In this document: one piece after another, positions 1,885-48,599 of the stretch
Layout of the letters: each line of letters starts with the position of its first letter
How positions within the stretch are numbered: the stretch's first letter is position 1
Origin: a bacterium
GTDB lineage: Bacteria > UBA8248
Length of the DNA: 64,000 nt
NCBI GenBank assembly: GCA_022825065.1
Contig: JAJDYR010000018.1
Span: 33,606 to 97,605 of the forward strand
Direction of reading: 5' to 3'
Program-made: the position numbers and the translations under genes
Notes under the pieces: generated by a model
What the model saw: only the letters and a program-made list of their open reading frames with translations
Told to the model about the DNA's origin: nothing
Databases searched by the model: none

Positions 1885-3000
1885 TTAATCGTATTCCGCG
1901 AGGGCGGGCATGGGAGGCTCCAGGGTGATGGGCTCCGTATCCTCGAGCAGGGGCATGATCTCGCGTCCGAATATCTCCACCTCCTCGACGTGCGGCCAAC
2001 CTGAGAGGATGAACGTGTGAACGCCCACTTCCACGTATTCCTTGAGCGCCTTGGCGATCATGTCCGGCGTTCCCACCAGGCAGGCGCCCGGGCCCGCGCG
2101 AACGGTGTTCACGCCCATCCACAAGGTGTCGGTGATCCAGAGCGACTCGCCCTTCGCCAGTTCGTTGACGCGCGTCTGGCCTATGCTCTCCGATTTGGTC
2201 TTCAAGTCGGCCCAGACCTGCACGTTCGAGATGTCGCTCCCCTCGATGAGTGCTTGCGCGGCTTTTTTCGCCTCCTCTTTTGTCTCCCGGCAGAGGATGT
2301 GCATCCGGACGCCGAATTTTATCTGCTCTTCGCGGCCGACCTCCGCGGCGCGCCGCTTCATGTCGAGCGCGTCCTTGGCAATGGTCTCCACATCTACGGC
2401 GTACATCATGTGCACGTCGGAGAATTTCGCCCCCACCCGGCGGCCGGACTCCGAACTTCCGCCGAGATAGATGGGCGGCCAGGGTTTCGAGACGTGGATC
2501 GGGAAAAAGGCGGCTTCTTTGATGTCGAAATACTTTCCCTTGTAGGTGATGGGAGCGTCAGCGCTCCAGATGCGCGTGACGATCTCCAGAAACTCCTCCG
2601 TCCGGTCGTAGCGCTCATCGTGTGCGAGGTGGTCGCCGTAGCGCATCTGCTCCGCGTGGCTCGAGCCGGTGACGACGTTGAGCGTCAGGCGTCCGCCGGT
2701 GAGCGCGTCGAGCGTGTTCGCCGTCTGGGCGGCGAATACGGGGCTGGTGAGACCCGGTCGGAACGCCACGCAGAATTTGATTCTTTCGGTATGCTGCGCC
2801 ACGCCCGCGGCCACGAGCCAGGCGTCCAGGCAGTGGGTGCCGGTGGGCACCAGAAGGTTCACGAAACCGGCCCGCTCGGCGGCGCTCGCAACGCGCGAGA
2901 GGTACTCGATGGTGGGTTTTCGCTCAGGCACCCTGGTGTTGATCTTTTGGCCGTCACCCGCCCTGGCCGACGGGAGAAACCAGGCGTATTCTGTCCCCAT
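1885..3000 (-). CDS. LLM-class flavin-dependent oxidoreductase, copy 2 (tandem paralog)
   Basis: The ORF-track entry 1885..3087 has an N-terminal extension. The homologous start MGTEYAWF maps to ATG at 3000. Protein is ~93% identical to copy 1. Confidence 0.85.
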   Translation of the reverse strand: MGTEYAWFLPSARAGDGQKINTRVPERKPTIEYLSRVASAAERAGFVNLLVPTGTHCLDAWLVAAGVAQHTERIKFCVAFRPGLTSPVFAAQTANTLDALTGGRLTLNVVTGSSHAEQMRYGDHLAHDERYDRTEEFLEIVTRIWSADAPITYKGKYFDIKEAAFFPIHVSKPWPPIYLGGSSESGRRVGAKFSDVHMMYAVDVETIAKDALDMKRRAAEVGREEQIKFGVRMHILCRETKEEAKKAAQALIEGSDISNVQVWADLKTKSESIGQTRVNELAKGESLWITDTLWMGVNTVRAGPGACLVGTPDMIAKALKEYVEVGVHTFILSGWPHVEEVEIFGREIMPLLEDTEPITLEPPMPALAEYD

Positions 3001-3129
3001 ATCGAAAACCTCTGTGGTGAGAGATGCGCCCAGTATAGCCCAAAATGGAGGAGCATGTATCGGCTGCGCCTGTTTTTGAAAATACAAACAAGGCGAATGC
3101 CCGTCGACCTCAACACAGAGGCCGCGAAG

Positions 3130-11985: not shown

Positions 11986-13320
11986 CTACCTCATGCCCAG
12001 GGGGTTCGGTTTCTGCCCCTCGGGGATGATGGGGTCGTAGGTGAAGCCTCTCGTCTTCTCTTCGAACTCCTCCCGCACCTGCTTCAATACGTTCTCATCG
12101 GTGATGAGTTCCAGCGCGGTAGTCGCCATGGTCTTGGCGGCGGTCATCATGCCTTTTTCTCCGATTTCCATGCCGTATTGCTGGGTGGCCATCCATGAAT
12201 GCCCCGGCGTCCCCGGCGCGTGGCAGGTCGTCATCAGGTTGCCCAGGGGCGTGAGCCAGCTCACGTTGCCGCGCTCGTTGCTCGGGCGGATGTCCGCCGG
12301 GTCGAGGGGCGAGACATCTTCCGAGAGCGGCGTCTCATAACCCAGTTTCCGGGCGAATTCCTTCGCCTCGTCCGAGTAGCTGTGCGCCCCCACGAATTCG
12401 AGGTTCCGCTGCACGCAGTGGGCCAGGGCGCTGTTGGGGAGATTCTCGTACACGGCGGTGAGGAGGGTTTCCTTCATCGTGGTGCCGGACGCCAGCGCGC
12501 CCGCCTTCGCGCAGTTTCGCACGCGCTCGCTCAGTTCGTTCACCATCGCCCGCTTGGGCGCGCGCACGTAGTACCACACGCGCGAGTAGGAGGGCACGAC
12601 GTTGGGCGCCACCCCGCCGTCGGTGATGACGTAGTGGATCTTGACCGGCTCGATGACGTGCTCGCGCATCATGTTCACGCCGTAGTTCATGATCTCCACG
12701 CCGTCGAGCGCGCTCCTGCCGTTCCAGGGGTCGCGGGCCGAGTGGGCGGTCTCGCCATAGAATTCGAAGACGATGGAATCCATCGCGTTCGTGCTGCCGC
12801 CCCGCGTGAAGCTCTTGTCCCCGGGGTGCCAGGTGACGGCGGCGTCGAGGCCGTCGAACGCGCCGTCGCGCGCCATGTACACCTTGCCCTCGAGAGTCTC
12901 CTCCGCCGGGCAGCCGAAGCAGACGACCCGGCCCTTCGTCCCCGATTCGCGCAAGGCGCGCGCCGCGGCGATGGCCGCGTAGGAACTCGCCGTGCCGAAG
13001 AGGTTGTGCCCGCAGCCGTGGCCCTGTTTCTCGTGGGAATCCCCGCAGTGGGGCAGCGCGTCGTATTCGCCCAGAATGCCGACGGCGGGGCCGCTGTCGC
13101 CCCACCTCGCGATGAAGGCGGTGGGGAGATCGCCCACCCCGCGCTGCACCTCGAATCCGTGTTGTTCGAGCACGTCCTCGAGCAGTTCCGCGGACTTGAA
13201 TTCCTCCAGGGCGATTTCCGCGAAGTTCCAGATTTCGCGGGCGATTTCGCGCGCCTCGCCCGCCTGGCCGTCGAGGTAATCGACGGCGTGTCGTTTGAGC
13301 TCGTCCATGTCTTCCTCCAC
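11986..13320 (-). CDS. M20-family amidohydrolase/peptidase (AbgB/amidohydrolase-like)
   Basis: 444 aa with metal-binding motifs of M20D amidohydrolases (HGCGHNLFG, GCPAEE). Confidence 0.8.
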   Translation of the reverse strand: MEEDMDELKRHAVDYLDGQAGEAREIAREIWNFAEIALEEFKSAELLEDVLEQHGFEVQRGVGDLPTAFIARWGDSGPAVGILGEYDALPHCGDSHEKQGHGCGHNLFGTASSYAAIAAARALRESGTKGRVVCFGCPAEETLEGKVYMARDGAFDGLDAAVTWHPGDKSFTRGGSTNAMDSIVFEFYGETAHSARDPWNGRSALDGVEIMNYGVNMMREHVIEPVKIHYVITDGGVAPNVVPSYSRVWYYVRAPKRAMVNELSERVRNCAKAGALASGTTMKETLLTAVYENLPNSALAHCVQRNLEFVGAHSYSDEAKEFARKLGYETPLSEDVSPLDPADIRPSNERGNVSWLTPLGNLMTTCHAPGTPGHSWMATQQYGMEIGEKGMMTAAKTMATTALELITDENVLKQVREEFEEKTRGFTYDPIIPEGQKPNPLGMR

Positions 13321-13640: not shown

Positions 13641-13967
13641 TGCCGTTATCCTGGAGTCCATGAGCGCGACTCCCCGGCGGGAAAAAGCCCCCCTGAGGAG
13701 GTCAAACGCGAGCGGGGAACGGGTGTCGAACGCGACTGGTGAAGGAGCGATCGAAGATTTTCCGGAAGGGTTCGCCGCCCTCACTCCCGCTCCATCGCCG
13801 CATCCCATGAGAAAGCCTCTTCTTCCTGCGCACCGGTCCGCCGGGGAAAACCCCTTCCCCGCGTCGCGCGCACGATACCGCAGTCCGCTGTTTCGGGAGT
13901 GACGGCAATTGCGGGGAAATGCGGGTTGATTTCGAGAGGGCGGGGTTGTTGAAAAATTTCATCAAAG

Positions 13968-14092
13968 GAGCAACCCCCCCTACCCCCCCTTGTCAGGGGG
14001 GTATAAAAAGGCAATGCGCCCCTGCCGGGCTGAGGGGGTTTTGATTTTTCTTGCCCCCCTGACAAGGGGGGGTAGGGGGGGTTGGTTTTCGA
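13968..14092. repeat. MITE-like inverted-repeat element, copy A
   Basis: Left arm AACCCCCCCTACCCCCCCTTGTCAGGGGGG and right arm CCCCCCTGACAAGGGGGGGTAGGGGGGGTT are reverse complements flanking a ~50-bp spacer (tataaaaaggc..gcgcc..gggctgagggggttttgatttttcttg). Confidence 0.8.
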
Positions 14093-14276
14093 GTCGAGTG
14101 GGGACGACCGTAGCGGACAGCCCCCGCGCCGCATGTGCAAGTTCGATTGCGCACCCCGCGGCGGGGAAGCTATGATGCAGCCGCCATCGCGCGCATCCGC
14201 ACACTCACTGTTTTCCGGAAGCGGTTCGGGGTTTTCCTGAAACAGCCCGCCGGATTGTTGAAATTCCACCTTCTAC

Positions 14277-15339: not shown

Positions 15340-15532
15340 GAAAACCAACCCCCCCTACCCCCCCTTGACAGGGGGGTATAAAAAGGCGATGTGCCCTCGC
15401 TGGGTTGAGGGGGTTTTGCTTTTTCTCGCCCCCCCAGCACCACCATACTTGAATCATCGCGCCATTTTAGCTGAGGGGGGTTTGATTTTTCTTGCCCCCC
15501 TGTCAAGGGGGGGTAGGGGGGGTTGCCTTTAT
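15340..15532. repeat. MITE-like inverted-repeat element, copy B (with internal partial duplication)
   Basis: Same terminal inverted repeats as copy A, including the gaaaaccaacc left flank and ggttgcctttatc right flank. The spacer contains a duplicated gggttgagggggttttgc segment. Confidence 0.8.
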
Positions 15533-16239: not shown

Positions 16240-16412
16240 GTAGGGGTCAGACATATATGTCTGACTGCGTGTCCGCCCTTTGGGGTCACATATCTTGTCA
16301 TCTCGTAGTATGGCGGAGAGATAAAACCGGGCGGACACGCAGGTCCGCCCCTACGGTTTCGTTTCAATGTGCGCCTTTCTCGTAGGGACAGGCCCCTGTG
16401 CCTGTCCGGGGT
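16240..16412. repeat. Cluster of REP-like palindromic units with GTAGGG heads
   Basis: Units: gtaggggtcagacatatatgtctgac; gggcggacacgcaggtccgcccctac; gtagggacaggcccctgtgcctgtccgggg. Related units occur at 19293-19448, 23058-23176, 23901-24016, 34341-34373 and 40485-40658. Confidence 0.65.
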
Positions 16413-16569
16413 CTGCGACCCCGGACCGTTCTCATGAACGGTCTCTACGGATAACCGCAATTCCTTGTTCATCACTAACGTTTGACCACGCTTGACGAAG
16501 CGCGCGGCGCCTCGCTAGATTCAAGGCGAACGCCAGAGGACCCACTACACTTTGGTGGGAGAAAAACGA

Positions 16570-16992
16570 ATGACGGAATTCGAAACCGCAACCCTCGCAA
16601 TCCAGCAAGCCACCCTCGCGGCGCAGCAGGCCTCCGTTTGGGTCGCCGCTCTCGTCGGGGCCGCGCAGTGCTCCCTGATCGCGTATGGCCTCTACTTCAT
16701 GCGCCAGGCCGCGCGTCACCGGGATGCCCAGCACCGCGAAACCATGGAGGCGATGGATCGCAGTCACCGCGAATCCATGGAGGTGATGGATCGCCGGCAT
16801 CGCGAATCCATGGAGGTGATTGAAGGCCGGCACCGCGAACACATGGAGGGGATTGACAGCCGGCACCGCGAACACATGGCGGCGCTGGCCGTCCAGCGCG
16901 AGGCGGAAAAAGATCGGCACCGCGAATCCATGGCGGCGCTTGCAGACCAGAGCGAGGCGCTCAGGGAACTCATACGGCGCACCTCACAATAG
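16570..16992 (+). CDS. Membrane-anchored protein with tandem 11-residue repeats (HRESMEVMDRR-type), unknown function
   Basis: Hydrophobic segment VWVAALVGAAQCSLIAYGLYFMRQAAR, then at least 6 tandem 11-aa repeats (DAQHRETMEAM / DRSHRESMEVM / DRRHRESMEVI / EGRHREHMEGI / DSRHREHMAAL ...). A paralog with the same architecture sits at 63584-64000. Confidence 0.55.
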   Translation: MTEFETATLAIQQATLAAQQASVWVAALVGAAQCSLIAYGLYFMRQAARHRDAQHRETMEAMDRSHRESMEVMDRRHRESMEVIEGRHREHMEGIDSRHREHMAALAVQREAEKDRHRESMAALADQSEALRELIRRTSQ

Positions 16993-17194
16993 CATTCGCA
17001 CGAGAATCGGACGTTTCACGAGGTAGAGCGGCCATAGAGAGCCGCCCTGCTGCAGGTTCGTTTCGAAACGCGGGAGATGCGCAGCCGGACAGGGCAGGGG
17101 CCGCATTCATGAATCAATCGACGTTGACTCGCCGGTAAGTGAATTTGAATTTGGAGGGACAGATCGCGACCTGTCCCTACCCCTCTCTCGGCTT

Positions 17195-17330
17195 GAAAAC
17201 CAACCCCCCCTACCCCCCCTTGTCAGGGGGGCAAGAAAAAGCAAACCCCTCTCAGCATGGCGGGGACGCATCGCCTTTTTATACCCCCCTGTTAAGGGGG
17301 GGTAGGGGGGGTTGCCTTTATCCCCTGAGG
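17195..17330. repeat. MITE-like inverted-repeat element, copy C (spacer in opposite orientation)
   Basis: Same terminal inverted repeats. The spacer is the reverse complement of copy A's spacer. Confidence 0.8.
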
Positions 17331-17424: not shown

Positions 17425-19284
17425 ATGATGATGGAACGCAAGCCGGAATCCCGCCGCAAGTTGATAAAGGCGGGCGATTTCATTCGTGTCGGCGCACTGG
17501 ATGAGCTCAAGCGCGAGCGCATGAAAGTGGTGAGCGGCCGGCGCCATCCCATCCTCGTGGTGTATGAGGGGGGCCGCGTTCACGCGCTCGACAACCGCTG
17601 TCCCCATCTCGGCTTCCCGCTCCACCGGGGGTCGGTGGAGAACGGCATCCTCACCTGCCACTGGCATCACGCCCGCTTCGATCTCGAGAGCGGCTGCACC
17701 TTCGATCTGTGGGCCGACGACGTGCCGAGGGCCAGGGTCGAGGTGCGGGGCGATGCGGTCTGGGTCGCGGCCGATTGCAGTTATCCCGACGAGGGCGACT
17801 ACTGGCGCACGCGGCTCGGCGACGCCATGGCGCACGACCTGGACCTGGTGTCCGGGAAGGCGGTGCTCGGCCTGCTCGATCGATCCGTTGCAAGCGCCGA
17901 TATCCTCGCCGACGCCTTCCTGTTCGGCGCGCGGAACCGCGACGACTGGAGCGCCGGTTCCACGATTCTGGCCGCGCTGGCGAACGTGCTGCCGGCCCTC
18001 GATGAGGACGACCGCTATCTCGCGCTGTTCAAGGGCATCTCCGAGGTGGCCGGCGACTGCGCCGGCGAGATGCCGCGCCGCGACCGCAAGCCCCTGGCCG
18101 ATGCCGCGCCGTCGCGGGACACCATGCGGGGCTGGCTCCGGCACTGGTCCCTGGTGCGCCACCGCGACGGCGCGGAGCGCACCGTGCTCACCGCGATCGC
18201 CGCCGGCGCGACGCCCGCGGAACTCGCCGAACTCCTGGTCACCGCACAGACCGATCGCTACTACGCCGATCGCGGCCACAGCCTCGATTTCATCAACAAG
18301 GCGATGGAGTGCCTCGACGCCATCGGCTGGCGGCACGCCGGGGCCATCCTGCCCACGGTGGTCAAGACCATGGTGGCGGCGCGCGGCGAGGAGGAGGCGA
18401 ACGCCTGGCGCCACCCGCTCGATCTGGTGCCCCTCCTGGAGGCGGCCTTCGCCGAATTGCCTGAGCTTTTCAGGAAGGGGGGAGAGGCGAAGGGCGTCTG
18501 GCGGGATCACCGCGCGCTGGCCGGGGCCATCCTCGGCGAGGAGGCCGGGCCCATCATCGCCGCCTTGGGCGCCGCAGTCGCCGCCGGCGCCCGGCCGACG
18601 GACCTCTCCCGCGCGCTCGCCTATGCGGCGGCGATCCGCGTGGCGCGATTCGGCGCCTCGAACGAGTTTTCCGACTGGAACGCGGCGCTTCACGCCTTCA
18701 CCTACGCCAACGCGTTGCATCAGGCTCTGAAGCGCATCACCGCGGCGGGGGAGGCGCCGCCCGAGGCCCAGGCCAACGTGGTGCGCGGCGTGTTCCACGG
18801 CGCCATGGCGGTCTATACGAACCGCTTTCTCAACGTGCCCCCGGCCCGGCTGCCGGAGGAGGAGCCTGCGGCGCTGGCCCGGCTCCCCGGGGACGCGGCG
18901 GCGCTCCGCCAGGGCCTGCTCGATACGATGGACCGCCAGCAGCAGGTCCAGCCGGCGGCGCGGCTGGTCGCCCGGTATTTGGACCAGGGCCACGACCCCG
19001 CAGGCATCATCGCGACGCTCGGCCATGCGCTCCTGCGCGAGGACGCGAGCTTTCACATGTTCCAGATGTACGAGGCGGGCGTGCAGCAGTACCGCGAGTG
19101 GGCGGGTGAGCCCGAAGGCGGCCACATTCTGATCGCCGTGGCCCGCTTTCTCGCCGCGCATTCCCCGACCCAGCGCGCCCGCCACCAGACCGCGACCATC
19201 GCCCGCCGGCTGCATCGCGGGGAGAGCGTGCATGAGGGAGAGGGCGGGGACGCGGCGGACATGGAAAGAGAGCAGGCCGGGTAG
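17425..19284 (+). CDS. Rieske [2Fe-2S] domain protein with large C-terminal all-alpha domain of unknown function
   Basis: CPHLGFPLHRG...(17 aa)...CHWHHARF is the Rieske CxH-x17-CxxH motif. The gene is ~72% GC, clearly higher than its neighbours. The antisense ORF 17107..19380 (-) is judged spurious. Confidence 0.7.
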   Translation: MMMERKPESRRKLIKAGDFIRVGALDELKRERMKVVSGRRHPILVVYEGGRVHALDNRCPHLGFPLHRGSVENGILTCHWHHARFDLESGCTFDLWADDVPRARVEVRGDAVWVAADCSYPDEGDYWRTRLGDAMAHDLDLVSGKAVLGLLDRSVASADILADAFLFGARNRDDWSAGSTILAALANVLPALDEDDRYLALFKGISEVAGDCAGEMPRRDRKPLADAAPSRDTMRGWLRHWSLVRHRDGAERTVLTAIAAGATPAELAELLVTAQTDRYYADRGHSLDFINKAMECLDAIGWRHAGAILPTVVKTMVAARGEEEANAWRHPLDLVPLLEAAFAELPELFRKGGEAKGVWRDHRALAGAILGEEAGPIIAALGAAVAAGARPTDLSRALAYAAAIRVARFGASNEFSDWNAALHAFTYANALHQALKRITAAGEAPPEAQANVVRGVFHGAMAVYTNRFLNVPPARLPEEEPAALARLPGDAAALRQGLLDTMDRQQQVQPAARLVARYLDQGHDPAGIIATLGHALLREDASFHMFQMYEAGVQQYREWAGEPEGGHILIAVARFLAAHSPTQRARHQTATIARRLHRGESVHEGEGGDAADMEREQAG

Positions 19285-19292
19285 GGCAGACC

Positions 19293-19448
19293 GTAGGGAC
19301 AGGCCTCCGTGCCTGTCCGGGGCCGTGTATCCGTGTATTGAATCGATTGCAGAGGGGGACCCATAGGGCAGGGCGGCCACGGAGGGCCGCCCCTACGGGT
19401 TCGTTGTGATTTTGCGGTTTGTAGGGACAGGTCGCGACCTGTCCGGGG
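19293..19448. repeat. Composite REP-like cluster
   Basis: Units: gtagggacaggcctccgtgcctgtccgggg; agggcagggcggccacggagggccgcccctac; gtagggacaggtcgcgacctgtccgggg. Same composite architecture as the clusters flanking hicBA. Confidence 0.65.
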
Positions 19449-19464
19449 TTCGGCGTGTCCGCTG

Positions 19465-19600
19465 GATTGGTCGGAAAACCAACCCCCCCTACCCCCCCTT
19501 GTCAGGGGGGTATAAAAAGGCGATACGCCCCCGCAGGGTTGAGGGGGTTTTGCTTTTTCTTGCCCCCCTGTTAAGGGGGGGTAGGGGGGGTTGGTTTTCA
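19465..19600. repeat. MITE-like inverted-repeat element, copy D
   Basis: Terminal inverted repeats with GAAAACCAACCCCCCC / GGGGGGGTTGGTTTTC extensions. Confidence 0.8.
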
Positions 19601-19942
19601 AGGCGGGGAGGCGAGCGCGTCCGGTCAAGAAAAAAAGGGCCGACACCCCTCGAAGGGCTGCTTTCAGGGGTTGTTGAAAAACCCCCGAGTGTGGGAACTG
19701 CTGCGACACATTCCCCGAGGTGCAGGCCGAGTCGGGGTGTCGGCTGCTTTCATGAAACGCGAACAGGGGCTGCCCGTTGTTCCCGTTCCCGGCTCGAGGA
19801 CTCAAACTCACAGCAAGGAGCGGTACAGTTTGCTCTATCACGAGGGAAGCAACCAACGGGCAACCCCCTTTTCGCTCTTTCCTTCATCTCGCCTTGGACC
19901 CCGGGGCTAGAGCCCCGAGGCCGAAGGCATTCTGCTCTTCTT

Positions 19943-22498
19943 CTATTCCTTCATGTAGCGCGTGCCGAATGCGCCGGCTACTGCGCCATTAGAGAAATTC
20001 GAGTTGAACTCACCCACCAGAACTGGGGGCGGTGCTACACCAGTTCCAACAGCCTCACCATCACCGGAGAATGTCCCCGACCAAGTGGACGTATCAGATG
20101 CCATGCCCTTTGATGTTCCGGTAATGCTGGCAGAACTAAGAACACCAGATGCGGTCGCCATGGTTACTTCCCACTCGTTGGCCTCTCCGCCTGATAGTTC
20201 AAAGTCCGAAATTGTCCCATGCACGGAATTGTGTTTGTCTGCGGCCACGGAAGTCTCTGCCCCGAAATAAGCCGTAAGGGCTACGTCCGCCGTGAACGTT
20301 CCTGCAGACCTGGCATCAAGAGAATTATCTGGATTCACGGTGTTGTAAACGTATACTCCGTGAGCGCCACCTTCATATTTCGCGCTTCCAGCTACAACAC
20401 TTCCTATATTCGTATTAGCGTCAAGACTTGAACCAGCGAAAGTCTGAACGGCATCGTAGGTGGTTTTGCCATCCTTGACGGTTTTCATGAGCCAGAAGCC
20501 ATAGTGCAGGTAATCATCATCCGCTACGGATACCATGGCCCCTGCGTCTGGCTTGAACTGCCATTCGCCCGTAATAGTGGTTATTTTCCCGTCCGCGTCG
20601 GTGACTGCCGTACAAGCGGCATTCACACATTCGAATGTTCCAGCCGCACCATCAAAAGTTCCCCTAAACTCACCTTCATTTCTATTTTCGGTTGTAGTGT
20701 CATCAGCAGGCAAGTTTGTGGTAGTAGTAGGCGCACTTGATATTCTGCTGGAAGCTACCTTGCCCACATCCGCCGTTTCGTCCAATTCATATGTGGTGCG
20801 TTGGTCACCAGTCCTCTCTGGGTCAGCGTCTCCCACCGTAAGAGTATACACAGAACTAAACGGCTCTGATTCAGGCGCCTCAATATCTGTCATGACACTT
20901 ACTATTTCTGAAACTCCTTTTCCGTTATCACGGACATACTTACCGTCCATCATCACGAACTTGGGGTCATTTTTCAGTGGCAAGGCAGGGTCCGTAACTT
21001 CTACCGATACAGAACCACTTTTATGAGAAATCTTCAGGGTATATTGATCGGCGGCATCAGTATCATCGAATGCCGGCGAGGTGGCGTCAGGCGTGGCGGT
21101 TGATTCAGCCGTTATGGCATCCGCTTTAGTCTTGACCATTTCATTCATAGCCTTTTTCGCAGCCGCCGCTTCCTCCATTTCTTCTTCTTCACGCCTCTTT
21201 TCTTCAGCTACTCTATCGGCCTCTTCCTTGGCGGCTACAACCATTCCGGCGAAACGCTCAACCGCAGCTTTTGCGGTCTCGGCTTTAGCCTGGGCGGCTT
21301 CCGCGTCAGCCGATGTAGTGGCGGCCGCGGCTTCATCGTTCGCGGCTTTCGCGTCCGCGACGGCATCTTCCGCCCGCGCGTAAGAGGCTTCGTCAGCAGC
21401 TTTCTGCTCATCCGTGAGGGCCGCAAGCGCCGCCTTCGCGTCCATGTACGCCTGCATGGCGGCCCCCTGCGCGGTCGAGAGCGCGGTCGCTTCCATGTGC
21501 GCGACCGTCACCATGCTAGCGTATTTCCTGGCATCGGCCAGCGCGCTTTCGGCGGCCATCTGGGCGGCTTCCGCATCCGCCGCTGTTTCGGCATTTTCCG
21601 CCCTTACTTTCGCGGCAAGCGCGTCCTCGAGAGCTCTCATGGCTATGTTGTAAGAAACGGAGTCGGCATCGCCTTGGCCCGCGATTGCATCCAGTGCAGC
21701 CTGCGCGGCATTAGCGGCCACTTCCGCGGCACCACGAGCGACTCTTATAGCGGACATTTCGGCCGCCAGATTGTCGGCAGCCGTTTTCGCGTCCGCTACC
21801 ATGTCGGCGTATCTCTGGACATCTGCGAGCGCGGCTTCCACGTCCGCCTGGGCAGCCTTCGCGGCTTCCGATGTGGTTGCCGCGTTCGCCATTGCGAGTG
21901 CTTCTTGAGCGGCCTCGTTCGCGACCTTGGCTCTCACGTATGAGTCGATGTCATGGGCTTTATTCGCCTCTGCGTCCGCCAATAAACTGGCCGCCATATC
22001 GGCCGCAGTCTTTGCGGCTTGCTTGGCGGTATCGAGCGCCATGGCTTCTTGCTGCCGATCCATTTCTGCCTGATCGGCCGCGGTCTTCGCGTCCGCTACC
22101 ATGCCGGCATACTTTTCAGCATCCGCTTGGGCCGCTTCTGCTTTCGCCTGCTCCGCCTTCGCAGCTTCCGATGTGGTTGCGGCTGCGGCCGCGTCACTCG
22201 CGGCTTTCGCGGCCGTGAGAGCGATTCGGGCTGCAGCATATGAGTCTGGATCGACACTCGCATCCGCCATCACGCCATCGACCGCCGTCATGGCAGCCGT
22301 ATACGCCGCCTTGGCGGCATTCTGCGCGGCTTCGAGAGCGGCGGCCTCGGCCGCGATCTCCTCATCCGTCGGGCCGGTCATCGGCGGTTCTGCCGTTCCG
22401 CTACCTCCGCCGCCGCCGCAGCCCGCCAGCGTCAGCGCGAACACGGCCGCCAGCGCGAAAGCGTAGAACTTGTGAATATACTTGTGTTTGAACTTCAT
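19943..22498 (-). CDS. Surface lipoprotein with Ala-rich internally repeated coiled-coil region and TbpB-like C-terminal beta-barrel domain
   Basis: Lipobox LTLAGC after the signal peptide. ~4 internal repeats of ~100 aa (TTSEAAKA..EKYAGMVADAKTAAD), also visible as DNA repeats at ~21700-21850 and ~22020-22160. C-terminal 300 aa is Gly/Ser/Thr-rich and ends ...GEFNSNFSNGAVAGAFGTRYMKE, like TbpB/fHbp-type handle-barrel lipoprotein C-termini. The 3' third of the gene is ~50% GC against ~65% locally. Confidence 0.75.
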   Translation of the reverse strand: MKFKHKYIHKFYAFALAAVFALTLAGCGGGGGSGTAEPPMTGPTDEEIAAEAAALEAAQNAAKAAYTAAMTAVDGVMADASVDPDSYAAARIALTAAKAASDAAAAATTSEAAKAEQAKAEAAQADAEKYAGMVADAKTAADQAEMDRQQEAMALDTAKQAAKTAADMAASLLADAEANKAHDIDSYVRAKVANEAAQEALAMANAATTSEAAKAAQADVEAALADVQRYADMVADAKTAADNLAAEMSAIRVARGAAEVAANAAQAALDAIAGQGDADSVSYNIAMRALEDALAAKVRAENAETAADAEAAQMAAESALADARKYASMVTVAHMEATALSTAQGAAMQAYMDAKAALAALTDEQKAADEASYARAEDAVADAKAANDEAAAATTSADAEAAQAKAETAKAAVERFAGMVVAAKEEADRVAEEKRREEEEMEEAAAAKKAMNEMVKTKADAITAESTATPDATSPAFDDTDAADQYTLKISHKSGSVSVEVTDPALPLKNDPKFVMMDGKYVRDNGKGVSEIVSVMTDIEAPESEPFSSVYTLTVGDADPERTGDQRTTYELDETADVGKVASSRISSAPTTTTNLPADDTTTENRNEGEFRGTFDGAAGTFECVNAACTAVTDADGKITTITGEWQFKPDAGAMVSVADDDYLHYGFWLMKTVKDGKTTYDAVQTFAGSSLDANTNIGSVVAGSAKYEGGAHGVYVYNTVNPDNSLDARSAGTFTADVALTAYFGAETSVAADKHNSVHGTISDFELSGGEANEWEVTMATASGVLSSASITGTSKGMASDTSTWSGTFSGDGEAVGTGVAPPPVLVGEFNSNFSNGAVAGAFGTRYMKE

Positions 22499-23040
22499 TT
22501 AGTGAGTCCTCCTGAATACATAGAAAAAGGGATTTTCAGTGAATTTCCGGCTTTCTCCGATTAACCTCCTTTCCTTCTCGATATACGGGCCTTCACAAAC
22601 TGGTCATTCGTATTTCGGGCCGCCCGGAGGACGGCGGACTTGCGGCCTCATCGTCCGGGCTGGTATGAACTCTTTCCGCGACACACGAATTCCTGAGGTA
22701 TGCGCGCACCTTTCTTTGGTCTCCTAAGGCGAGCGGTCTGCCCGCCGCTAATTGTCGTTACGGGACGCCGGAAGCCCCGTTCTCCGCCGGGAGAGCCGTT
22801 CCGGGGCGCGCGCGGGCCGCGAATGAGCGAAAAAAGACGGAAAACGGCGCCCGAAAACTCCTCCCGGGACCCCGGAATTGCGCTTGACATGGTTTTGAGA
22901 GGTGTTATATTGTCTGATAACGACAATTATCGGATATCAAGAAGCCATTTCGGTCATAACCGGCCGCCGCCGTCATGCCTGCGTCGGACATAGATGCGGA
23001 TGACGGCCCTTCATGTATCGCTGAACCCCGGCATGACGAT

Positions 23041-23200
23041 TGAAAGCCGCAGCCGCCGTAGGGGCCGTTCGTGAACGGCCCTTGTCGGAGAAGCGGGCGG
23101 TTCGCGAACCGCCCCTACGGGTTCGTTGCGATTTGCGTGGTTGTTGTAGGGACAGGCCTCCGTGCCTGTCCGGGGTCGCGACCTGTCCGAGGCCCCCGCG
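23041..23200. repeat. Composite REP-like cluster (left direct repeat flanking hicBA)
   Basis: gtaggggccgttcgtgaacggcccttgtcggagaagcgggcggttcgcgaaccgcccctacgggttcgttgcgatttgcgtggttgttgtagggacaggcctccgtgcctgtccgggg. Near-identical composite recurs at 23885-24030 in the same orientation. Confidence 0.7.
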
Positions 23201-23389
23201 CCTGTTCTTGCGATTCCGCAACCGCAGATGGCCGTCATTGTGATACACTCTGCCGCAGACGTGGATCGGCGGCTCCTGAATGATCGTCGTGTAGAGCCGC
23301 CGTATAAGTTCGGACGAACGCTTGAGGGCCGGGCCCTGGAGGTGAAGATTGCTGAATTTGCCCGATGTCGAGCGTAGGGAGGGGAACCC

Positions 23390-23593
23390 GTGAAACTCAA
23401 GGTAGTCGTTCACGAGGCGGAAGAAGGTGGATATTGGGCCGAGGTCCCGGCTGTTCCAGGGTGTGCGACGCAGGGAGATACGTTCGAGGAGTTGTTGAGC
23501 AATCTCTACGAGGCGGTCGAAGGGTGCCTCTCCGTGGACGTCCAGGAGGTGGACGTTTCGGGCGCGGGCAGGGTCGTCGAGATCGCCGTGTGA
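23390..23593 (+). CDS. hicB: Type II toxin-antitoxin system HicB-family antitoxin (UPF0150-like)
   Basis: MKLKVVVHEAEEGGYWAEVPAVPGCATQGDTFEELLSNLYEAVEGCL matches the HicB N-terminal RNase H-like domain pattern (V.EPEEGGY.V..P.LPGC.TQGDT.EEAL.N..EAIE). Confidence 0.8.
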   Translation: MKLKVVVHEAEEGGYWAEVPAVPGCATQGDTFEELLSNLYEAVEGCLSVDVQEVDVSGAGRVVEIAV

Positions 23594-23796
23594 AAATCGT
23601 CAGTGGAAAGCGCTTTTGCCGCATACTGGAAGCGAAGGGCTGGAAACTGGCGCGCACCCGCGGCAGTCACCGCATTTACGCGAAACGGGGTTCGGACATC
23701 CGCATCTCGGTGCCGGTGCATGGCGAAGCGTCGCTCAAACGCGGCTTGCAGAGGCATCTCATGAAGCTGGCGGATATCAAGGATTCCGAACTGTAG
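23590..23796 (+). CDS. hicA: Type II toxin-antitoxin system HicA-family mRNA interferase toxin
   Basis: GTG start overlaps the hicB stop (GTGA). VKIVSGKRFCRILEAKGWKLARTRGSHRIYAKRGSDIRISVPVHGEASLKRGLQRHLMKLADI matches the HicA/YcfA consensus (G.E..K.L...GW.L.R..GSH....). It is the C-terminal part of track ORF 23365..23796. Confidence 0.8.
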   Translation: MKIVSGKRFCRILEAKGWKLARTRGSHRIYAKRGSDIRISVPVHGEASLKRGLQRHLMKLADIKDSEL

Positions 23797-23884
23797 GCCA
23801 GGAGCAAGGACGACGCAATATATCCACCCTTATCGGCCCTGGCCAACCTGTTGGTTGTCACCGACATTCACCGGAATGACGAAC

Positions 23885-24030
23885 AAACGTCGCAGCCACC
23901 GTAGGGGCGGTTCGCGAACCGCCCTTGCCGGAGAAACGGGCGCTTCACGAAGCGCCCCTACGGGTTCGTTGCGATTTGCGTGGTTTCTGTAGGGACAGGT
24001 CGCGACCTGTCCAGGGTCTCTGCGCCTGTC
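23885..24030. repeat. Composite REP-like cluster (right direct repeat flanking hicBA)
   Basis: gtaggggcggttcgcgaaccgcccttgccggagaaacgggcgcttcacgaagcgcccctacgggttcgttgcgatttgcgtggtttctgtagggacaggtcgcgacctgtccaggg. Confidence 0.7.
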
Positions 24031-24044
24031 GAAGGGGACGCCCG

Positions 24045-24215
24045 AAAACCAACCCCCCCTACCCCCCCTTGTCAGGGGGGTATGAAAAAGCGACACCCCA
24101 GCGAAGGGAAAAAGCGACACCCCGGCGAAGGGGGAAAAGAAAAGAAGGTCCCCCCGACAGGGGGGAGCAAAAAAAGACCCCCCTGACAAGGGGGGGTAGG
24201 GGGGGTTGCCTTTAT
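24045..24215. repeat. MITE-like inverted-repeat element, copy E (1.5-copy variant)
   Basis: Left arm, then a spacer with an extra half-arm (ccccccgacaggggggagcaaaaaaagacccccctgacaagggggggtagggggggttgcctttatc). Confidence 0.8.
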
Positions 24216-24247
24216 CCCTTGTTAAGGGCGGCCACGGAGGGCCGCCC

Positions 24248-25501
24248 CTACGCCTCCGGCGCGGTCGCCGCCTCCACTTCGGCCGGATGAATCTCGGCGA
24301 AGGAATGATCCCTGGTCCGCCCGTCCGCTTCGAAATCGATGATCTCGGTCTCGCCGATGACCCTGTCGATCATCTCCCGGACGGGCAGGCGCGATTCCAG
24401 CCCGCGCAGGTGGCCCGCGTGGGAGCGGATGGCGGGGTGCTTGGGGACGAACAGCGAGCAGCAGTCCTGGTCGGGCTCGATGGAAATCTCGAACGTGCCG
24501 AGCGCTTTCGCCCCCTCGATAATCTCGTCCTTGTCCATGCCGATCAGGGGCCTCAGGATCGGCATCCGCACCGCGTCCTCGATGGTGGCCAGGTTCTGGA
24601 GCGTCTGGCTCGCGACCTGTCCCAGGCTCTCGCCGGTGACGAGGGCGCGGGCGTTCTCGAACCCGGCGATTCGCTCCCCGATGCGCGTCATGAACCGGCG
24701 GTAGAGGACGACGCGGTACTCGGGCTGCGTGGCGAGGACGATCTCTTTCTGCAGGTTGCCGAACGGCACCATGTAGAGCCTGCTCCCCAGCTGGTAGCCG
24801 TTCAGAACGCCGGCCAGGTCCTTCGCCTTCTCGGCGGACGCGCGGCTGAGATAAGGCGCGCCGTGAAAGTGGATGAACACCACCTCGCAGCCGCGCTTCA
24901 TGACCCGCCAGGCGGCCAGGGGGGAGTCGATGCCGCCGGAGAGAAGCGCCGCCGCCTTTCCGAGCGAGCCTGTGGGCAGGCCGCCGGGGCCGGGGATTTT
25001 CTCGGCGTACACCCAGGCCTCTTTGGGGATCACTTCCACGTGCACCGTGAGCCCCGGGCGATCCAGGTCGACGGGCAGGTGTCTTCTGGCCTGGATCGCG
25101 GCGCCGATGGCCCTGTCCCACTCCCGCGTGCTGACGGGCGTGGCCGGGAAGGATTTCCGGGTCCGGACGCGGAAGCTTTTGGTTTTAAGAGGAGCGATCA
25201 TTTCGAGCGCCGTTTGCGCCGCCGATTCGATATCGAGCGGAACGCTTCGCGCCCGGGCGAAATAGGCGACCCCGAATACTTTCCCGAGGGCCTCGATGAG
25301 AGCGCCGGGATTTTTCAGGCCGCTCGCTTCCAGAATCAGCCTTCCCGTGCGTTTCCTGACTTTGGCTTCACAGAATAAAGAGGCCGCGCGCTCGATCCGC
25401 TTCGAAAGGCGCTCGATGAAGAGCGGACGGTTCTTCCCCTTGAGGCCGATCTCGTCGTAATGGATGAGGATCGAGACGTCTTTCGGCTCACCGGAATTCA
25501 C
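24248..25501 (-). CDS. thiI: tRNA 4-thiouridine(8) synthase
   Basis: THUMP domain plus PP-loop ATPase (SGGIDSPLAAW); typical ThiI length. Confidence 0.9.
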   Translation of the reverse strand: MNSGEPKDVSILIHYDEIGLKGKNRPLFIERLSKRIERAASLFCEAKVRKRTGRLILEASGLKNPGALIEALGKVFGVAYFARARSVPLDIESAAQTALEMIAPLKTKSFRVRTRKSFPATPVSTREWDRAIGAAIQARRHLPVDLDRPGLTVHVEVIPKEAWVYAEKIPGPGGLPTGSLGKAAALLSGGIDSPLAAWRVMKRGCEVVFIHFHGAPYLSRASAEKAKDLAGVLNGYQLGSRLYMVPFGNLQKEIVLATQPEYRVVLYRRFMTRIGERIAGFENARALVTGESLGQVASQTLQNLATIEDAVRMPILRPLIGMDKDEIIEGAKALGTFEISIEPDQDCCSLFVPKHPAIRSHAGHLRGLESRLPVREMIDRVIGETEIIDFEADGRTRDHSFAEIHPAEVEAATAPEA

Positions 25502-33527: not shown

Positions 33528-33680
33528 GGGGATAAAGGCAACCCCCCCTACCCCCCCTTGTCAGGGGGGTCTTTTTTTGTTCCCCCCTGTCGGGGGGACT
33601 TTTTTTCTTTTACCCCCTTCGTCGGGGTGTTGCTTTTTTATACCCCCCTGACAAGGGGGGTAGGGGGGGTTGGTTTTCAA
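33528..33680. repeat. MITE-like inverted-repeat element, copy F (variant spacer shared with copy I)
   Basis: gataaaggcaaccccccctacccccccttgtcagggggg ... cccccctgacaagggggggtagggggggttggttttc. Confidence 0.8.
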
Positions 33681-34387: not shown

Positions 34388-34540
34388 GGCAACCCCCCTC
34401 TTGTCTGAGGATAAAGGCAACCCCCCCTACCCCCCCTTAACAGGGGGGCAAAAAATGCAAAGCCCCCTCAGCCCGGCGAAGGCGCATCGCCTTTTTATAC
34501 CCCCCTGACAAGGGGGGGTAGGGGGGGTTGCCTTTCAAGA
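34388..34540. repeat. MITE-like inverted-repeat element, copy G
   Basis: Left-arm partial duplication (ggaaaggcaacccccctcttgtctgaggataaaggcaaccccccctaccccccc) and the canonical right arm. Confidence 0.8.
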
Positions 34541-36998: not shown

Positions 36999-37200
36999 CC
37001 GGAAAGGCAACCCCCCCTACCCCCCTTAACAGGGGGGTAAAAAAAGACGATGCGCCCCGCCGGGCTGAGGGGGCTTTGCTTTTTCTTTCCCTCCTGACGA
37101 AGGGGGTAAAAAGACGACGCCCGCTGACGGAGGGGTTTTTGGTTCTTCATACCCCCCTGACAAGGGGGGGTAAGGGGGGGTTGCCTTTATCCCCTGACTA
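36999..37200. repeat. MITE-like inverted-repeat element, copy H (1.5-copy variant), ending 40 bp upstream of the molybdoenzyme start codon
   Basis: ggaaaggcaaccccccctacccccttaacagggggg ... atacccccctgacaagggggggtaagggggggttgcctttatcccctgactaagggggg. Confidence 0.8.
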
Positions 37201-40191: not shown

Positions 40192-40279
40192 CCTGTCCGA
40201 GGTCGCGATTTGTCCTATCGGTCGGATTTGAAATTCACTCCCCCCTTGAGTGGACTGTTGAAAAAGCATTTATCAAAAG

Positions 40280-40425
40280 AATAACCCCCCCTACCCCCCC
40301 TTAACAGGGGGGTCTTTTTGTTGCTCCCCCCTGTCGGGGGGACCTTTTTTTCTTTTACCCCCTTCGTCGGGGTGTTGCTTTTTTATACCCCCCTGATAAG
40401 GGGGGGTAGGGGGGGTTGCTTTTCC
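40280..40425. repeat. MITE-like inverted-repeat element, copy I
   Basis: Same arms. The spacer variant matches copy F (ggggggtctttttgttgctcccccctgtcggggggacc...). Confidence 0.8.
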
Positions 40426-45133: not shown

Positions 45134-46012
45134 ATGAAGATGTCAAAAGCCCTGCTTCTTGAAGGCAAACCTGTGGCGGAAAAGGTGATGGAGGAACTCA
45201 AAGCCTCCATTGATGCTCTACTCCCCCGGATGGGCAGGCCTCCGGGGCTCGCCGTCGTTCTCGTGGGCGAGGACCCGGCCTCTCAGGTGTATGTCCGCAT
45301 CAAAGGGCGTTCCGCCAAAAAACTCGGCATCCGGACTTTCGATCACCATTTGCCCGAGGATACGAGCCAGGATGATATCGTCTCCCTCATCGAAGCGTTG
45401 AACCGCGATGAAGAGGTGGACGGGATGCTGGTGCAGTTGCCGCTTCCAGGAGACTTGAACGAAGAAGAAGTGCTGCGCAGGGTATCCCCCCGAAAAGACG
45501 CCGACGTCTTTCACCCGGAAAATTTCGGAAAGCTCGCGCTCAAGCAGGGTACGCTCAAGCCCTGCACGCCCGCCGGTGTGCTCGAGATTCTGAAGTTCTA
45601 CGATATCGGCCTGGAAGGGAAGAAAACCGCCATCATCGGGCGCAGCAAGATCGTGGGGCTTCCCCTGGCCATTCTGATGATGCACGAGAATGCGACGATC
45701 ACGGTGTGCCACTCCCGGACGCGCGATATCCCCGCGATCACGAGAGAAGCCGATATCGTCGTGGCCGCCATGGGACGGCCGAAATTCCTGACGGCGGATA
45801 TGGTCCGGGAAGGGGCGGTGGTGGTCGACGTCGGCATCAACCGGGTGGATGGGGAACTGGTCGGGGATTGTGATTTCGAACCGTTGCTCGAAAAGGTTTC
45901 CGCCATTACCCCGGTGCCGGGCGGTGTGGGGCCCATGACGGTCGCCATGTTGATGATGAACACGACCCAGGCGTATTCTCTCAAGTCGCAGGAAGCGGGG
46001 GCATCGAGCTGA
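45134..46012 (+). CDS. folD: Bifunctional methylenetetrahydrofolate dehydrogenase/methenyltetrahydrofolate cyclohydrolase
   Basis: Canonical FolD motifs (VLVGEDPASQVYV, GRSKIVGLPLA, PVPGGVGPMTVAML). Confidence 0.9.
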   Translation: MKMSKALLLEGKPVAEKVMEELKASIDALLPRMGRPPGLAVVLVGEDPASQVYVRIKGRSAKKLGIRTFDHHLPEDTSQDDIVSLIEALNRDEEVDGMLVQLPLPGDLNEEEVLRRVSPRKDADVFHPENFGKLALKQGTLKPCTPAGVLEILKFYDIGLEGKKTAIIGRSKIVGLPLAILMMHENATITVCHSRTRDIPAITREADIVVAAMGRPKFLTADMVREGAVVVDVGINRVDGELVGDCDFEPLLEKVSAITPVPGGVGPMTVAMLMMNTTQAYSLKSQEAGASS

Positions 46013-46025
46013 TAAAGGCTTTCGG

Positions 46026-47426: not shown

Positions 47427-47692
47427 GTACTGTGGATGAATCCGCGAATCCCGATGCGGAACCGAAAAGTTTCGAGGCTGCGCTGGAGCGTTTGGAAGCC
47501 ATCGTGGAAGAACTCGAAGAGGGCGAGCCTTCCCTGGAAAAGGCCGTTTTGCTGTATGAAGAGGGTGTGAAGCTCTTCCGCTACAGTCGGGAGCAGTTGA
47601 ACGCGGCGCAAAAGAAGGTGGAAGAACTCGCCGGGGAATCGGAGGAAACATTATCGTTGCAGCCGTTCGAAGATGGTGATGATGATGAATGA
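47423..47692 (+). CDS. xseB: Exodeoxyribonuclease VII small subunit
   Basis: SFEAALERLEAIVEELEEGEPSLEKAVLLYEEGVKL signature. Start overlaps the xseA stop. Confidence 0.85.
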   Translation: MSTVDESANPDAEPKSFEAALERLEAIVEELEEGEPSLEKAVLLYEEGVKLFRYSREQLNAAQKKVEELAGESEETLSLQPFEDGDDDE

Positions 47693-48599
47693 AGGCGAAC
47701 TCCCCGTCGTCATCGACGCAGCGGCTTACCTGAGCGGCTGGGCGAAACGTGTGGAAGAAGAACTCGACCGCCTCGTGCCGGAATCCTCGGAACCGCCCGA
47801 AATCTTCGAGATCATGCGCTACAGCCTTTTCGCGGGTGGAAAGCGCCTGCGCCCCGTGCTTTGTGTGGCCGGGTGTGAAGCCGTAGGCGGCGACCCTGAA
47901 TGTATCCTGCCTGCCGCATGCGCCCTCGAATGCATTCATTCCTATTCCTTGATCCATGATGATTTGCCCGCCATGGACGATGACGACTTAAGACGCGGGA
48001 TGCCGACGAACCACAAGGTGTATGGGGAGGCGGCGGCGATTCTCGCGGGTGACGGGTTGCAGGCCCTGGCCTTCGAGTTGATGGCGAATCAACGAATGGG
48101 TGCGAAAGTTTCGCCGGAGCGTCATGTGAAAGCGATTCGCATGGTCGCCGATGCGGCGGGCGCGACGGGTATGGTGGGGGGACAGCTTTTGGACATCCGG
48201 GCCAATGGCCGTGTGAGCGATATGGCGCATTTGGAGGAAATCCACAGAAGAAAGACGGGCGCGCTTTTGAGGGTTTCCGTTTGCCTGGGAGGCCTCCTCG
48301 GCGGGGGTGATGAAGCGCAGATGGAAGCGCTGCGTGTTTACGGCGAGAAAATCGGGCTGGCGTTTCAAATCGTGGACGACATTTTGGACGTGGAAGGCGA
48401 TGAGGCCCTCATGGGAAAACCCATAGGCTCGGATGAGGGATTGAACAAGGCTACCTATCCCGCCTTGTACGGTATGGAAGAATCGAAAAAACTCGCGCGT
48501 TCCACTTGCGAGGAGGCCTTGGAAGCGCTCGAAATTTTCCCGAATAAAGCGCCTGAATTGGAATCTTTGGCGCATTTTATTATCTTGCGTCGGTTTTGA
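47673..48599 (+). CDS. ispA: (2E,6E)-farnesyl diphosphate synthase / geranyltranstransferase
   Basis: Aspartate-rich motifs LIHDDLPAMDDDDLRRG and FQIVDDILD. Conserved xseB-ispA-dxs order. Confidence 0.85.
   Translation: MVMMMNEGELPVVIDAAAYLSGWAKRVEEELDRLVPESSEPPEIFEIMRYSLFAGGKRLRPVLCVAGCEAVGGDPECILPAACALECIHSYSLIHDDLPAMDDDDLRRGMPTNHKVYGEAAAILAGDGLQALAFELMANQRMGAKVSPERHVKAIRMVADAAGATGMVGGQLLDIRANGRVSDMAHLEEIHRRKTGALLRVSVCLGGLLGGGDEAQMEALRVYGEKIGLAFQIVDDILDVEGDEALMGKPIGSDEGLNKATYPALYGMEESKKLARSTCEEALEALEIFPNKAPELESLAHFIILRRF

Follow-up and report, generated by a model that had tools for sequence, protein, structure and literature searches.

The 64,000-nt stretch analysed here (the window; positions 33,606 to 97,605 of contig JAJDYR010000018.1, assembly GCA_022825065.1, lineage UBA8248) carries a complete gene for an 851-aa lipoprotein, whose architecture, relatives and allelic variation are the subject of this study (Table 1). 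The open reading frame (ORF) was intact and its product began with a canonical lipoprotein signal and a Gly-rich tether (MKFKHKYIHKFYAFALAAVFALTLAG/C27, then GGGGGSG). As read from the sequence, a K-rich n-region, a hydrophobic h-region and LTLAG/C27 provide the lipobox cysteine found in cargo of Slam (surface lipoprotein assembly modifier), the translocon of the type 11 secretion system (T11SS). The lipobox was kept in most full-length homologs. A first-pass annotation had described an 851-aa lipoprotein with a LAGC lipobox, four Ala/Glu/Lys-rich repeats mirrored in the DNA and a characteristic C-terminal ending. All of these were recovered, the repeats as four units of ~95 aa with four DNA copies and the ending as ...GAVAGAFGTRYMKE, compared with a homolog consensus of EFNANFSNGSVAGAFGARKQ. 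The exact protein is present, on a 164,224-bp contig, in a public collection of 15 billion proteins; it was missing from the 120 listed homolog matches to its own C-terminal part, and absence from those matches is not to be read as real absence.

The surroundings of the gene are ordinary chromosome, with genes for ThiI, polyprenyl synthase, DXS, exonuclease VII, hydantoinases, acyl-CoA dehydrogenases, RlmN and others. DXS was 96% identical to a protein named ‘Nitrospinae bacterium’ and 77–88% identical to a further series, the named members of which were Nitrospinota, Nitrospinae and Nitrospinaceae, before identity dropped to 57%. The host is therefore a member of the Nitrospinota. An Rfam scan of positions 19000–24400 for leader or regulatory RNA gave nothing above noise, and a sigma-70 promoter scan found no site on the strand of the lipoprotein gene.

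Structure prediction provided the decisive evidence on what the protein is predicted to be. The C-terminal 387 aa, modelled from a 71-sequence alignment, gave a predicted local distance difference test score (pLDDT) of 90.6 and a predicted template modelling score (pTM) of 0.85. This modelled head comprised a small beta subdomain (aa ~487–600), a handle sheet of long hairpins (~601–695) and an eight-stranded barrel (~696–851). The C-terminal barrel with its preceding handle, or pedestal, resembles a TbpB lobe, as in Slam cargo. The model contained a single handle-plus-barrel after the small beta subdomain and a helical rod, and not the bilobed architecture of TbpB and LbpB. The best structural matches of the head included TbpB, LbpB, HpuA and hemophilins, and fHbp and NHBA scored equally well. 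The N-terminal beta subdomain was the most variable of the three among homologs (mean top-residue frequency 0.48 in the family alignment).

Between tether and head lies a segment (residues 41–470) made up of 37% Ala, 10% Glu, 8% Asp and 6% Lys. Its four protein units (aa 50–144, 150–244, 246–340 and 336–430) were 38–53% identical to one another, and the four DNA copies (at 21216, 21486, 21774 and 22074, spaced by 270, 288 and 300 nt) were 62–77% identical. A hidden Markov model (HMM) built from the units found four matches in the window protein, three in the allele of a syntenic genome (described below) and one in each of 26 of the 120 listed homologs. The repeat expansion is thus confined to this locus, with four units versus three, and one elsewhere where matched. 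The longest exact DNA repeat inside the gene was 18 bp; assembly collapse and slippage are therefore no concern, and the array is old and diverged. Tandem Repeats Finder returned no meaningful arrays, only weak ones of 9 and 15 nt, because the protein repeats are too diverged. A (GGC)4 run is in frame. Phase variation by slippage, in the style of Neisseria contingency loci, was rejected, as no homopolymer or perfect short tandem repeats were found in or upstream of the gene.

In a full-length AlphaFold2 (AF2) model (pLDDT 80.8), DSSP assigned residues 45–467 as wholly helical, with very long helices (84–178, 210–273 and 396–467) crossing the repeat boundaries. The stalk is accordingly modelled as a spectrin-like rod of three-helix units, each helix–loop–helix–helix. 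Foldseek found no significant match to it in the PDB. Spectrin-type and other three-helix-bundle rods likewise have repeats of ~95–106 residues, with three helices that run continuously across boundaries. The likeness to such rods, and to the Ala-rich stalks of Gram-positive bacteria (M protein, the A-region of antigen I/II), is an architectural analogy with no significant match in structure or sequence. The window protein, unlike the Gram-positive stalks, is anchored by a lipid in the outer membrane of a diderm. By this analogy the stalk is likely to serve as a spacer projecting a binding head.

Table 1. Features of the lipoprotein locus, of the rest of the window and of comparison loci. Positions are those of the window unless a comparison locus is named.
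Feature	Positions	Strand	Basis or remark
Lipoprotein gene, complete, 851 aa	19943..22498	-	ORF list and translation; stop codon 19943-19945
Sec/signal peptidase II signal peptide and lipobox LAG/C, aa 1-27	22418..22498	-	read from sequence; Cys27 codon 22418-22420
Ribosome-binding site AGGAGG	22508..22513	-	9 nt 5' of ATG
Gly/Pro-rich flexible tether, aa 28-44	22366..22417	-	sequence; pLDDT <50 for residues 1-41 of full-length model
Ala-rich all-helical stalk, aa 45-467	21098..22365	-	DNA repeats, protein repeat alignment and HMM, DSSP on full-length AF2 model
N-terminal beta subdomain of head, aa 487-600	20699..21040	-	AF2 models
Handle (pedestal) beta-sheet, aa 601-695	20414..20698	-	invariant Cys624/Cys629 pair and YLHYGFW motif
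Eight-stranded C-terminal beta-barrel, aa 696-851	19946..20413	-	ends ...GAVAGAFGTRYMKE
Upstream non-coding region	22499..23200	-	90-97% identical to syntenic genome
Conserved 3' flank	19587..19942	-	terminator-like hairpin at 19634-19651
Palindromic element like a miniature inverted-repeat transposable element (MITE)	19474..19605	.	immediately follows the 3' flank of the gene; folds at -112 kcal/mol (z -9.7)
Palindromic MITE-like element	24044..24213	.	far end of upstream intergenic region
Palindromic element, further copies	13965-14100, 15340-15530, 17195-17319, 33533-33678, 34412-34535, 37001-37187, 40276-40423		
Second short intergenic repeat	16345-16413, 19354-19405, 23109-23177, 23952-24020		
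hicBA-like module	23390-23796	+	hicB-like antitoxin ORF 23390-23593 (by eye), then HicA toxin (PF07927, E 2e-14)
Direct repeats framing the hicBA-like module	23028-23156, 23871-23999		129 nt; 87% identical
Segment absent from syntenic genome	23207-24006		hicBA-like module and one direct repeat
146-aa ORF	16552-16992	+	region 16329-17093; no Pfam match; 45-nt tandem repeats 16828-16959
619-aa Rieske protein	17425-19284	+	
Housekeeping stretch, ~14 kb	46000-60400		xseA, dxs, others
569-aa ORF	53368-55077	+	inside the housekeeping stretch; no Pfam match
Luciferase-like monooxygenase paralogs (PF00296), tandem	414-1529, 1885-3087	-	
DNA shared by the monooxygenase paralogs	399-698/1870-2169, 1660-1815/3130-3285		87-90% identical
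Members of a protein cluster with an ankyrin-repeat-like representative (by eye), comparison loci	L003 5696-7816, L005 3365-4126, L010 4824-5804, L016 5696-7545, L021 5895-7649, L024 6627-7607, L040 3211-4104		representative L003 6860-7816
DUF169 to Slam with no cargo gene, comparison locus	L044 4739-8278		476-nt gap
Other lipoprotein cargo types beside Slam, comparison loci	L012 11748-14915; L018 1746-4535; L039 4300-5799	-; -; +	

We then placed the protein in its family. A search with the C-terminal part returned 217 homologs, all of them hypothetical proteins and none with a Pfam domain, with identities of 35–62% among the 120 listed. Nearly all full-length members shared one plan: lipobox, Gly linker, an Ala-rich segment of 80–280 aa and a conserved head of ~385 aa. 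A scan of GTDB species representatives gave 41 homolog loci, all from metagenome-assembled genomes (MAGs), which were labelled (the labels being those of the database records) as Nitrospinota, Nitrospirales/Nitrospira, Alphaproteobacteria, Defluviicoccus, Gammaproteobacteria, Binatia and Chloroflexi. Several genomes held multiple lipoprotein paralogs, some of them clustered. Many of the homologs come from bins named in the manner of sponge-metagenome series. A list of sponge-associated Entoporibacteria includes the SB06xx bins (PMC7883664), and the COS and RHO prefixes appear to match host species of a sponge MAG study (PMC8163846).

Gene neighbourhood linked this family to Slam. The second commonest cluster among the neighbouring ORFs was a ~460-aa protein with N-terminal tetratricopeptide repeats (TPR) and a C-terminal barrel ending ...F, which occurred within 10 kb of a homolog in 25 of the 41 loci, mostly directly downstream and on the same strand. 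It matched PF04575 (SlipAM; E 2e-25 and 1e-21) and, weakly, TPR_Slam. Homologs 84% identical to the Slam from locus L016 are entered at NCBI as ‘surface lipoprotein assembly modifier [Nitrospinae bacterium]’; Slam in Nitrospinae MAGs had already been named by NCBI's pipeline. Four loci (L003, L010, L016 and L024, at ~7.9–14.6 kb) shared a home locus in which DUF169, the surface lipoprotein and Slam were followed by a conserved ~300-aa ORF. In L044, a NAD-binding dehydrogenase followed Slam and the cargo gene was missing, which suggests that cargo genes are lost or gained while the Slam locus stays fixed.

The neighbourhoods also bear on function. A nutrient-capture co-receptor or hemophore-like protein, binding a host molecule that carries metal or haem and passing it to a TonB-dependent transporter in the manner of TbpB, LbpB, HpuA or hemophilin, would agree with the inclusion of these proteins among the best structural matches, and nutrient piracy would suit a host-associated lifestyle. 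The lack of a TonB-dependent transporter among the conserved neighbours argues against this role. None lay near the gene in the window, and only two of the 41 homolog loci, both Nitrospirales, had one, 6–9 kb away. Moreover, fHbp and NHBA, which are not nutrient receptors, matched the head just as well, and a long helical stalk is foreign to known nutrient co-receptors. We therefore consider a nutrient-scavenging function unlikely.

Comparison with a syntenic genome revealed how variable the mature protein is. In L007 (OZ244799.1, a 4.28-Mb chromosome), the thiI side of the locus was 93.5% identical to the window over 7.7 kb and the Rieske-gene side 95.9% identical over 2.1 kb, and the same position held a 765-aa lipoprotein with the same signal peptide. 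In 100-nt steps, DNA identity was 91–100% along the flank up to window position 22409, ~90 nt inside the gene, fell to 28–69% across the region encoding the mature protein, with one 92% island at 21418–21517, and was back at 93–98% from 19884, just beyond the stop codon. At the protein level, the signal peptide and linker were 95% identical between the two alleles, compared with 60% for the helical repeats (three units in L007, four in the window), 41% for the N-terminal beta subdomain, 59% for the handle and 45% for the barrel. A diversity-generating retroelement was also considered as the source of this variation and rejected: divergence covered the whole mature protein and no reverse transcriptase occurred among the Pfam-scanned ORFs of the window, although no dedicated test was made.

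The closest relatives of the gene lay on putative mobile elements. Among the listed homologs, the closest C-terminal domains (62% identity) were encoded on relaxase-bearing contigs, and the window head was closer (59–64%) to the heads of L001 (a Nitrospinota bin), L005, L042 and L043 than to the L007 allele (41–59%). The L042 (44 kb) and L043 (35 kb) contigs encoded a 987-aa TrwC relaxase together with AbiEi/AbiEii, PIN/FitA and MqsA-like modules, and a 7.1-kb stretch of L042 matched part of L005, a 4.13-Mb contig of a different MAG, at 95.8% identity, which fits a conjugative or integrative element. A rough neighbour-joining tree of the heads, built without support values, mixed phylum labels and parted the window from its syntenic sister L007. 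Homology to these copies was also apparent at the gene ends. At the 5' end, ~60 nt of upstream sequence and the signal peptide were 84–88% identical between the window gene and the L001, L005, L042 and L043 copies. At the 3' end, the gene's final ~70 nt and the ~180 nt that follow were 79–86% identical in these copies and beside paralogs in L026, L005, L001 and L021. In addition, ~435 nt of the upstream region were 76–80% identical upstream of paralogs in the Nitrospinota contigs L001 and L004. From these alignments, the gene may be described as a cassette in which homologous ends surround a mosaic, horizontally exchanged and fast-diverging core.

Carriage of the closest relatives beside TrwC relaxase, AbiE and other toxin–antitoxin modules on 35–44-kb contigs, and of tyrosine recombinases (PF00589) near homologs in 11 loci, could also indicate an accessory surface protein of mobile elements, acting in surface or entry exclusion like TraT or in masking or altering a phage receptor instead of in host interaction; surface proteins exposed to phages typically vary in this way. 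However, most homologs are chromosomal, Slam-paired and next to housekeeping genes. A tblastn search of the window with the relaxase found nothing, no conjugation genes lay near the window copy, and the lipoprotein had no structural match to TraT or to viral proteins in BFVD. Such an accessory role appears improbable.

Nucleotide composition set the gene apart from its neighbours. The window has a GC content of 60.7% and the genes neighbouring the lipoprotein 62–71%, whereas the 3' part of the gene (aa 471–851) has 50.7%, with a GC content at third codon positions (GC3) of 0.47 against a mean of 0.771 (sd 0.086) over 36 window genes (z = −3.5). Since the drop lies at third codon positions, it reflects a genuine step in codon usage and cannot be put down to amino-acid composition. 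GC3 was 0.64 in the Ala-rich part. The L007 allele showed the same step, the heads of both alleles having GC3 values of 0.38–0.55. Low GC3 is not general among homologs, because the mean gene-minus-flank difference across 29 homolog loci was −0.02. The first-pass annotation had called the 3' third low in GC against ~65% and proposed horizontal acquisition and antigenic variability. Its figure for the surroundings was too high, but the low GC of the segment (GC3 0.47 versus 0.77) was borne out. Acquisition gained further support from the relaxase contigs and a C-domain tree that departs from taxonomy, and variability from the very different syntenic allele with its other repeat number.

Both the low GC3 shared by the window and L007 heads, despite only ~45% identity, and the failure to find a donor of matching GC3 would be expected had divergence and low GC arisen in place, by fast diversifying evolution and AT-biased mutation with no import or foreign recombination. 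Against this, identity fell sharply from >90% to <50% at both gene ends, with an internal 92% island, which describes a mosaic and not a gradient, and the window head was nearer to those of relaxase contigs and of another Nitrospinota bin than to the syntenic allele. The flanking genes differed by only 4–7%, a span too short for the protein to have diverged by ~55% of its amino acids in place. Divergence without exchange is thus an unlikely explanation. Instead, the conserved ends, the mosaic low-GC3 interior, the allele divergence and the mobile-element relatives point to horizontal exchange combined with diversifying pressure, which might be exerted on an exposed antigen by the host, phages or neighbouring cells.

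Taken together, we consider it probable that the gene encodes a Slam/T11SS-class surface lipoprotein of a Nitrospinota from a sponge-metagenome lineage, the mature part of which is an exchangeable, recombining and variable cassette. Several results weigh against this assignment. PF01298 matched none of the 71 members of the homolog family, although it did match a classical cargo beside Slam in L012, which served as a positive control, and Pfam and NCBIfam gave only noise for the whole protein, its C-terminal 387 aa and its C-terminal 189 aa. Aligned by hhalign with three TbpB_B_D barrels of the classical type, taken from these same loci, the family reached a probability of 0.6%, in the right register but not significant, and a sequence-profile search of the PDB, made with the 71-sequence alignment, hit the signal-peptide region only. 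There is hence no sequence link to known cargo barrels, and cargo membership rests on predicted structure and gene neighbourhood. No Slam was found in the 64-kb window (Pfam on large ORFs; tblastn of 29 Slam homologs). The allele comparison at this locus comprises two alleles only, the Chloroflexi labels, which come from short binned contigs, may be binning errors, and the low-GC segment has no donor in sight, its nearest relatives having a GC3 of ~0.6 and not 0.47. Because PF01298 and hhalign failed to detect the homolog family despite its linkage to Slam, it is a cargo clade unseen by current domain models. The earlier suggestion of a Slam-dependent TbpB/fHbp-like barrel is therefore supported by the predicted fold but not by the sequence, and its Slam link is confirmed for the family but not for the window copy.

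With no Slam in the 64-kb window, the lipoprotein gene is an orphan cargo copy. In Neisseria, the genes for fHbp and TbpB are unlinked to Slam1, and orphan cargo is normal for this class. A Slam elsewhere in the genome of the window is plausible, because a circular 2,934,324-bp contig holds a Slam gene at a locus ordered DUF169, Slam, NAD-binding, and the matching DUF169–Slam locus in L003, L010, L016 and L024 also holds a cargo gene. The evidence suggests that this Slam-bearing contig and a DXS 86% identical to that of the window belong to the same genome. A tblastn search of the window with the head revealed no second copy and no silent cassette. The protein might instead be a periplasm-facing lipoprotein of the outer or inner membrane, an orphan retaining an old shared barrel fold and having no translocon at all; Slam within 10 kb in 25 of the 41 homolog loci speaks for export, and we regard a periplasmic orientation as rather improbable.

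Under the Slam-dependent reading, the precursor would be exported by Sec, lipidated at Cys27 and cut by signal peptidase II, as its canonical lipobox suggests, and presumably delivered to the outer membrane by Lol, as is general for sorted lipoproteins. A Slam (DUF560/PF04575) encoded outside the window may then recognise the C-terminal barrel and flip the protein to the surface, a step suggested by the fold and by the Slam linkage of the family. Surface exposure of the lipoprotein is thereby inferred. The lipid-anchored tether and the ~420-residue rod would hold the TbpB-fold head off the membrane, the architecture being that of the model and the orientation on the cell presumed, and the head may bind an external ligand.

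Slam-dependent surface lipoproteins are known chiefly from Neisseria and relatives, as virulence factors and vaccine antigens. Compared with the classical cargo of Neisseria, Pasteurellaceae, Moraxella and Acinetobacter (TbpB, LbpB, fHbp, NHBA, HpuA, hemophilin/HphA, PmSLP and fIbp), the window family has no detectable sequence homology and no conserved TonB-dependent partner, and its carriers are uncultured MAGs, some of them with non-proteobacterial labels (Nitrospinota, Nitrospirales, Binatia). The window protein further adds an N-terminal beta subdomain and a ~420-aa spectrin-like Ala-rich rod between anchor and head. Predicted T11SS cargo has been described as combining an 8-stranded barrel at the C-terminus with a pedestal and an N-terminal effector domain that varies, and as co-occurring with a DUF560 outer-membrane protein (PMC12282271, PMC8406197), and these proteobacterial families follow the same barrel, pedestal and effector logic as the window family. 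The same surveys treat the system as proteobacterial and found cargo through the TbpBBD and lipoprotein C Pfam domains, models to which the window family is invisible (PMC12282271, PMC8406197). The terms ‘sponge’ and ‘Nitrospi*’ are absent from the text of both PMC12282271 and PMC8406197, and none of the papers searched joined sponge with DUF560 or the name Slam. What is new here is a cargo clade that Pfam does not see, with a stalk built as a helical rod and with non-proteobacterial labels among its MAGs, together with evidence of mobile carriage and cassette-like allele replacement.

These findings widen the host range of the T11SS, including chromosome-level Nitrospirales-labelled assemblies, and its cargo architecture, by the rod stalk and the extra beta subdomain. 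The factors so far proposed to mediate host interaction in sponge symbiosis are mainly eukaryotic-like proteins such as ankyrin repeats. The field now gains a candidate exposed, variable and horizontally exchanged protein, and the two alleles at one conserved locus illustrate how an uncultured symbiont may replace a surface antigen in the manner of a cassette. A more far-reaching proposal is that the window gene is one allele of a horizontally shared, symbiosis-associated system of surface antigens. This Pfam-invisible cargo clade and its translocon would circulate on conjugative elements among unrelated sponge symbionts (labelled Nitrospinota, Nitrospirota, Binatia, Alpha- and Gammaproteobacteria), the variable head on its extendable stalk mediating recognition by, or evasion of, the innate immunity and phagocytosis of the sponge or its dense phage community. 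We put this forward only tentatively and hold it to be rather doubtful. If true, it would take the T11SS beyond Proteobacteria and pathogens and provide a concrete surface determinant of sponge symbiosis.

The neighbourhoods of the homologs held further protein types. A protein cluster recurred 2–5 kb from the homolog in seven loci, its representative being ankyrin-repeat-like by eye (Table 1). Together with the tyrosine recombinases, these neighbours fit mobile, host-interaction-rich regions but do not prove them. Other lipoprotein cargo types adjoined Slam in three alphaproteobacterial MAG loci. One such cargo (1055 aa) had a classical PF01298 TbpB_B_D barrel, and another was a 499-aa lipoprotein with a zinc-protease-like HExxH motif, a barrel tail containing ...GGFFGPGHEAVAG... 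and no Pfam match. In these MAGs there seem to be several T11SS cargo architectures yet to be explored.

The window and L007 also differed around the lipoprotein gene. The hicBA-like module lies just upstream of it, within a segment absent from L007 that includes one of the two direct repeats framing the module, and this looks like a small repeat-mediated insertion or deletion. The 146-aa ORF lies on the far side of the Rieske gene in the window, whereas its L007 counterpart (12152–12966), which translates as repeated HRESME motifs, lies between the lipoprotein and Rieske genes. This displacement amounts to a local rearrangement, the two genomes being ~94% identical. An intergenic, G/C-run-rich perfect palindrome of ~130 nt (AACCCCCCCTACCCCCCCTTGTCAGGGGGG ... 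CCCCCCTGACAAGGGGGGGTAGGGGGGGTTGG), similar to a MITE or a repetitive extragenic palindrome, occurred in about ten copies in the window and, at ~90% identity, in L007 and the Nitrospinota contig L001. The lipoprotein locus lies between two of the copies, and the rearrangement breakpoints relative to L007 fall at these elements. A second short intergenic repeat (CCGCCCCTACGGGTTCGTT...GTAGGGACAGGCC..CCTGTCCGGGGTC) was often found beside the palindrome; one of its copies gave a sub-threshold Rfam match to CRISPR-DR29 that is almost certainly due to chance.

Codon usage also varied elsewhere in the window. The gene for the Rieske protein, which has a Rieske [2Fe-2S] domain at its N-terminus followed by ~500 aa with no Pfam match, had the highest GC content among the called window genes (71%, GC3 0.89), and the ~14-kb housekeeping stretch had a GC3 of 0.57–0.72 compared with 0.80–0.89 in the first 45 kb. 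Finally, the DNA identity shared by the tandem luciferase-like monooxygenase paralogs, given in Table 1, points to a recent tandem duplication.

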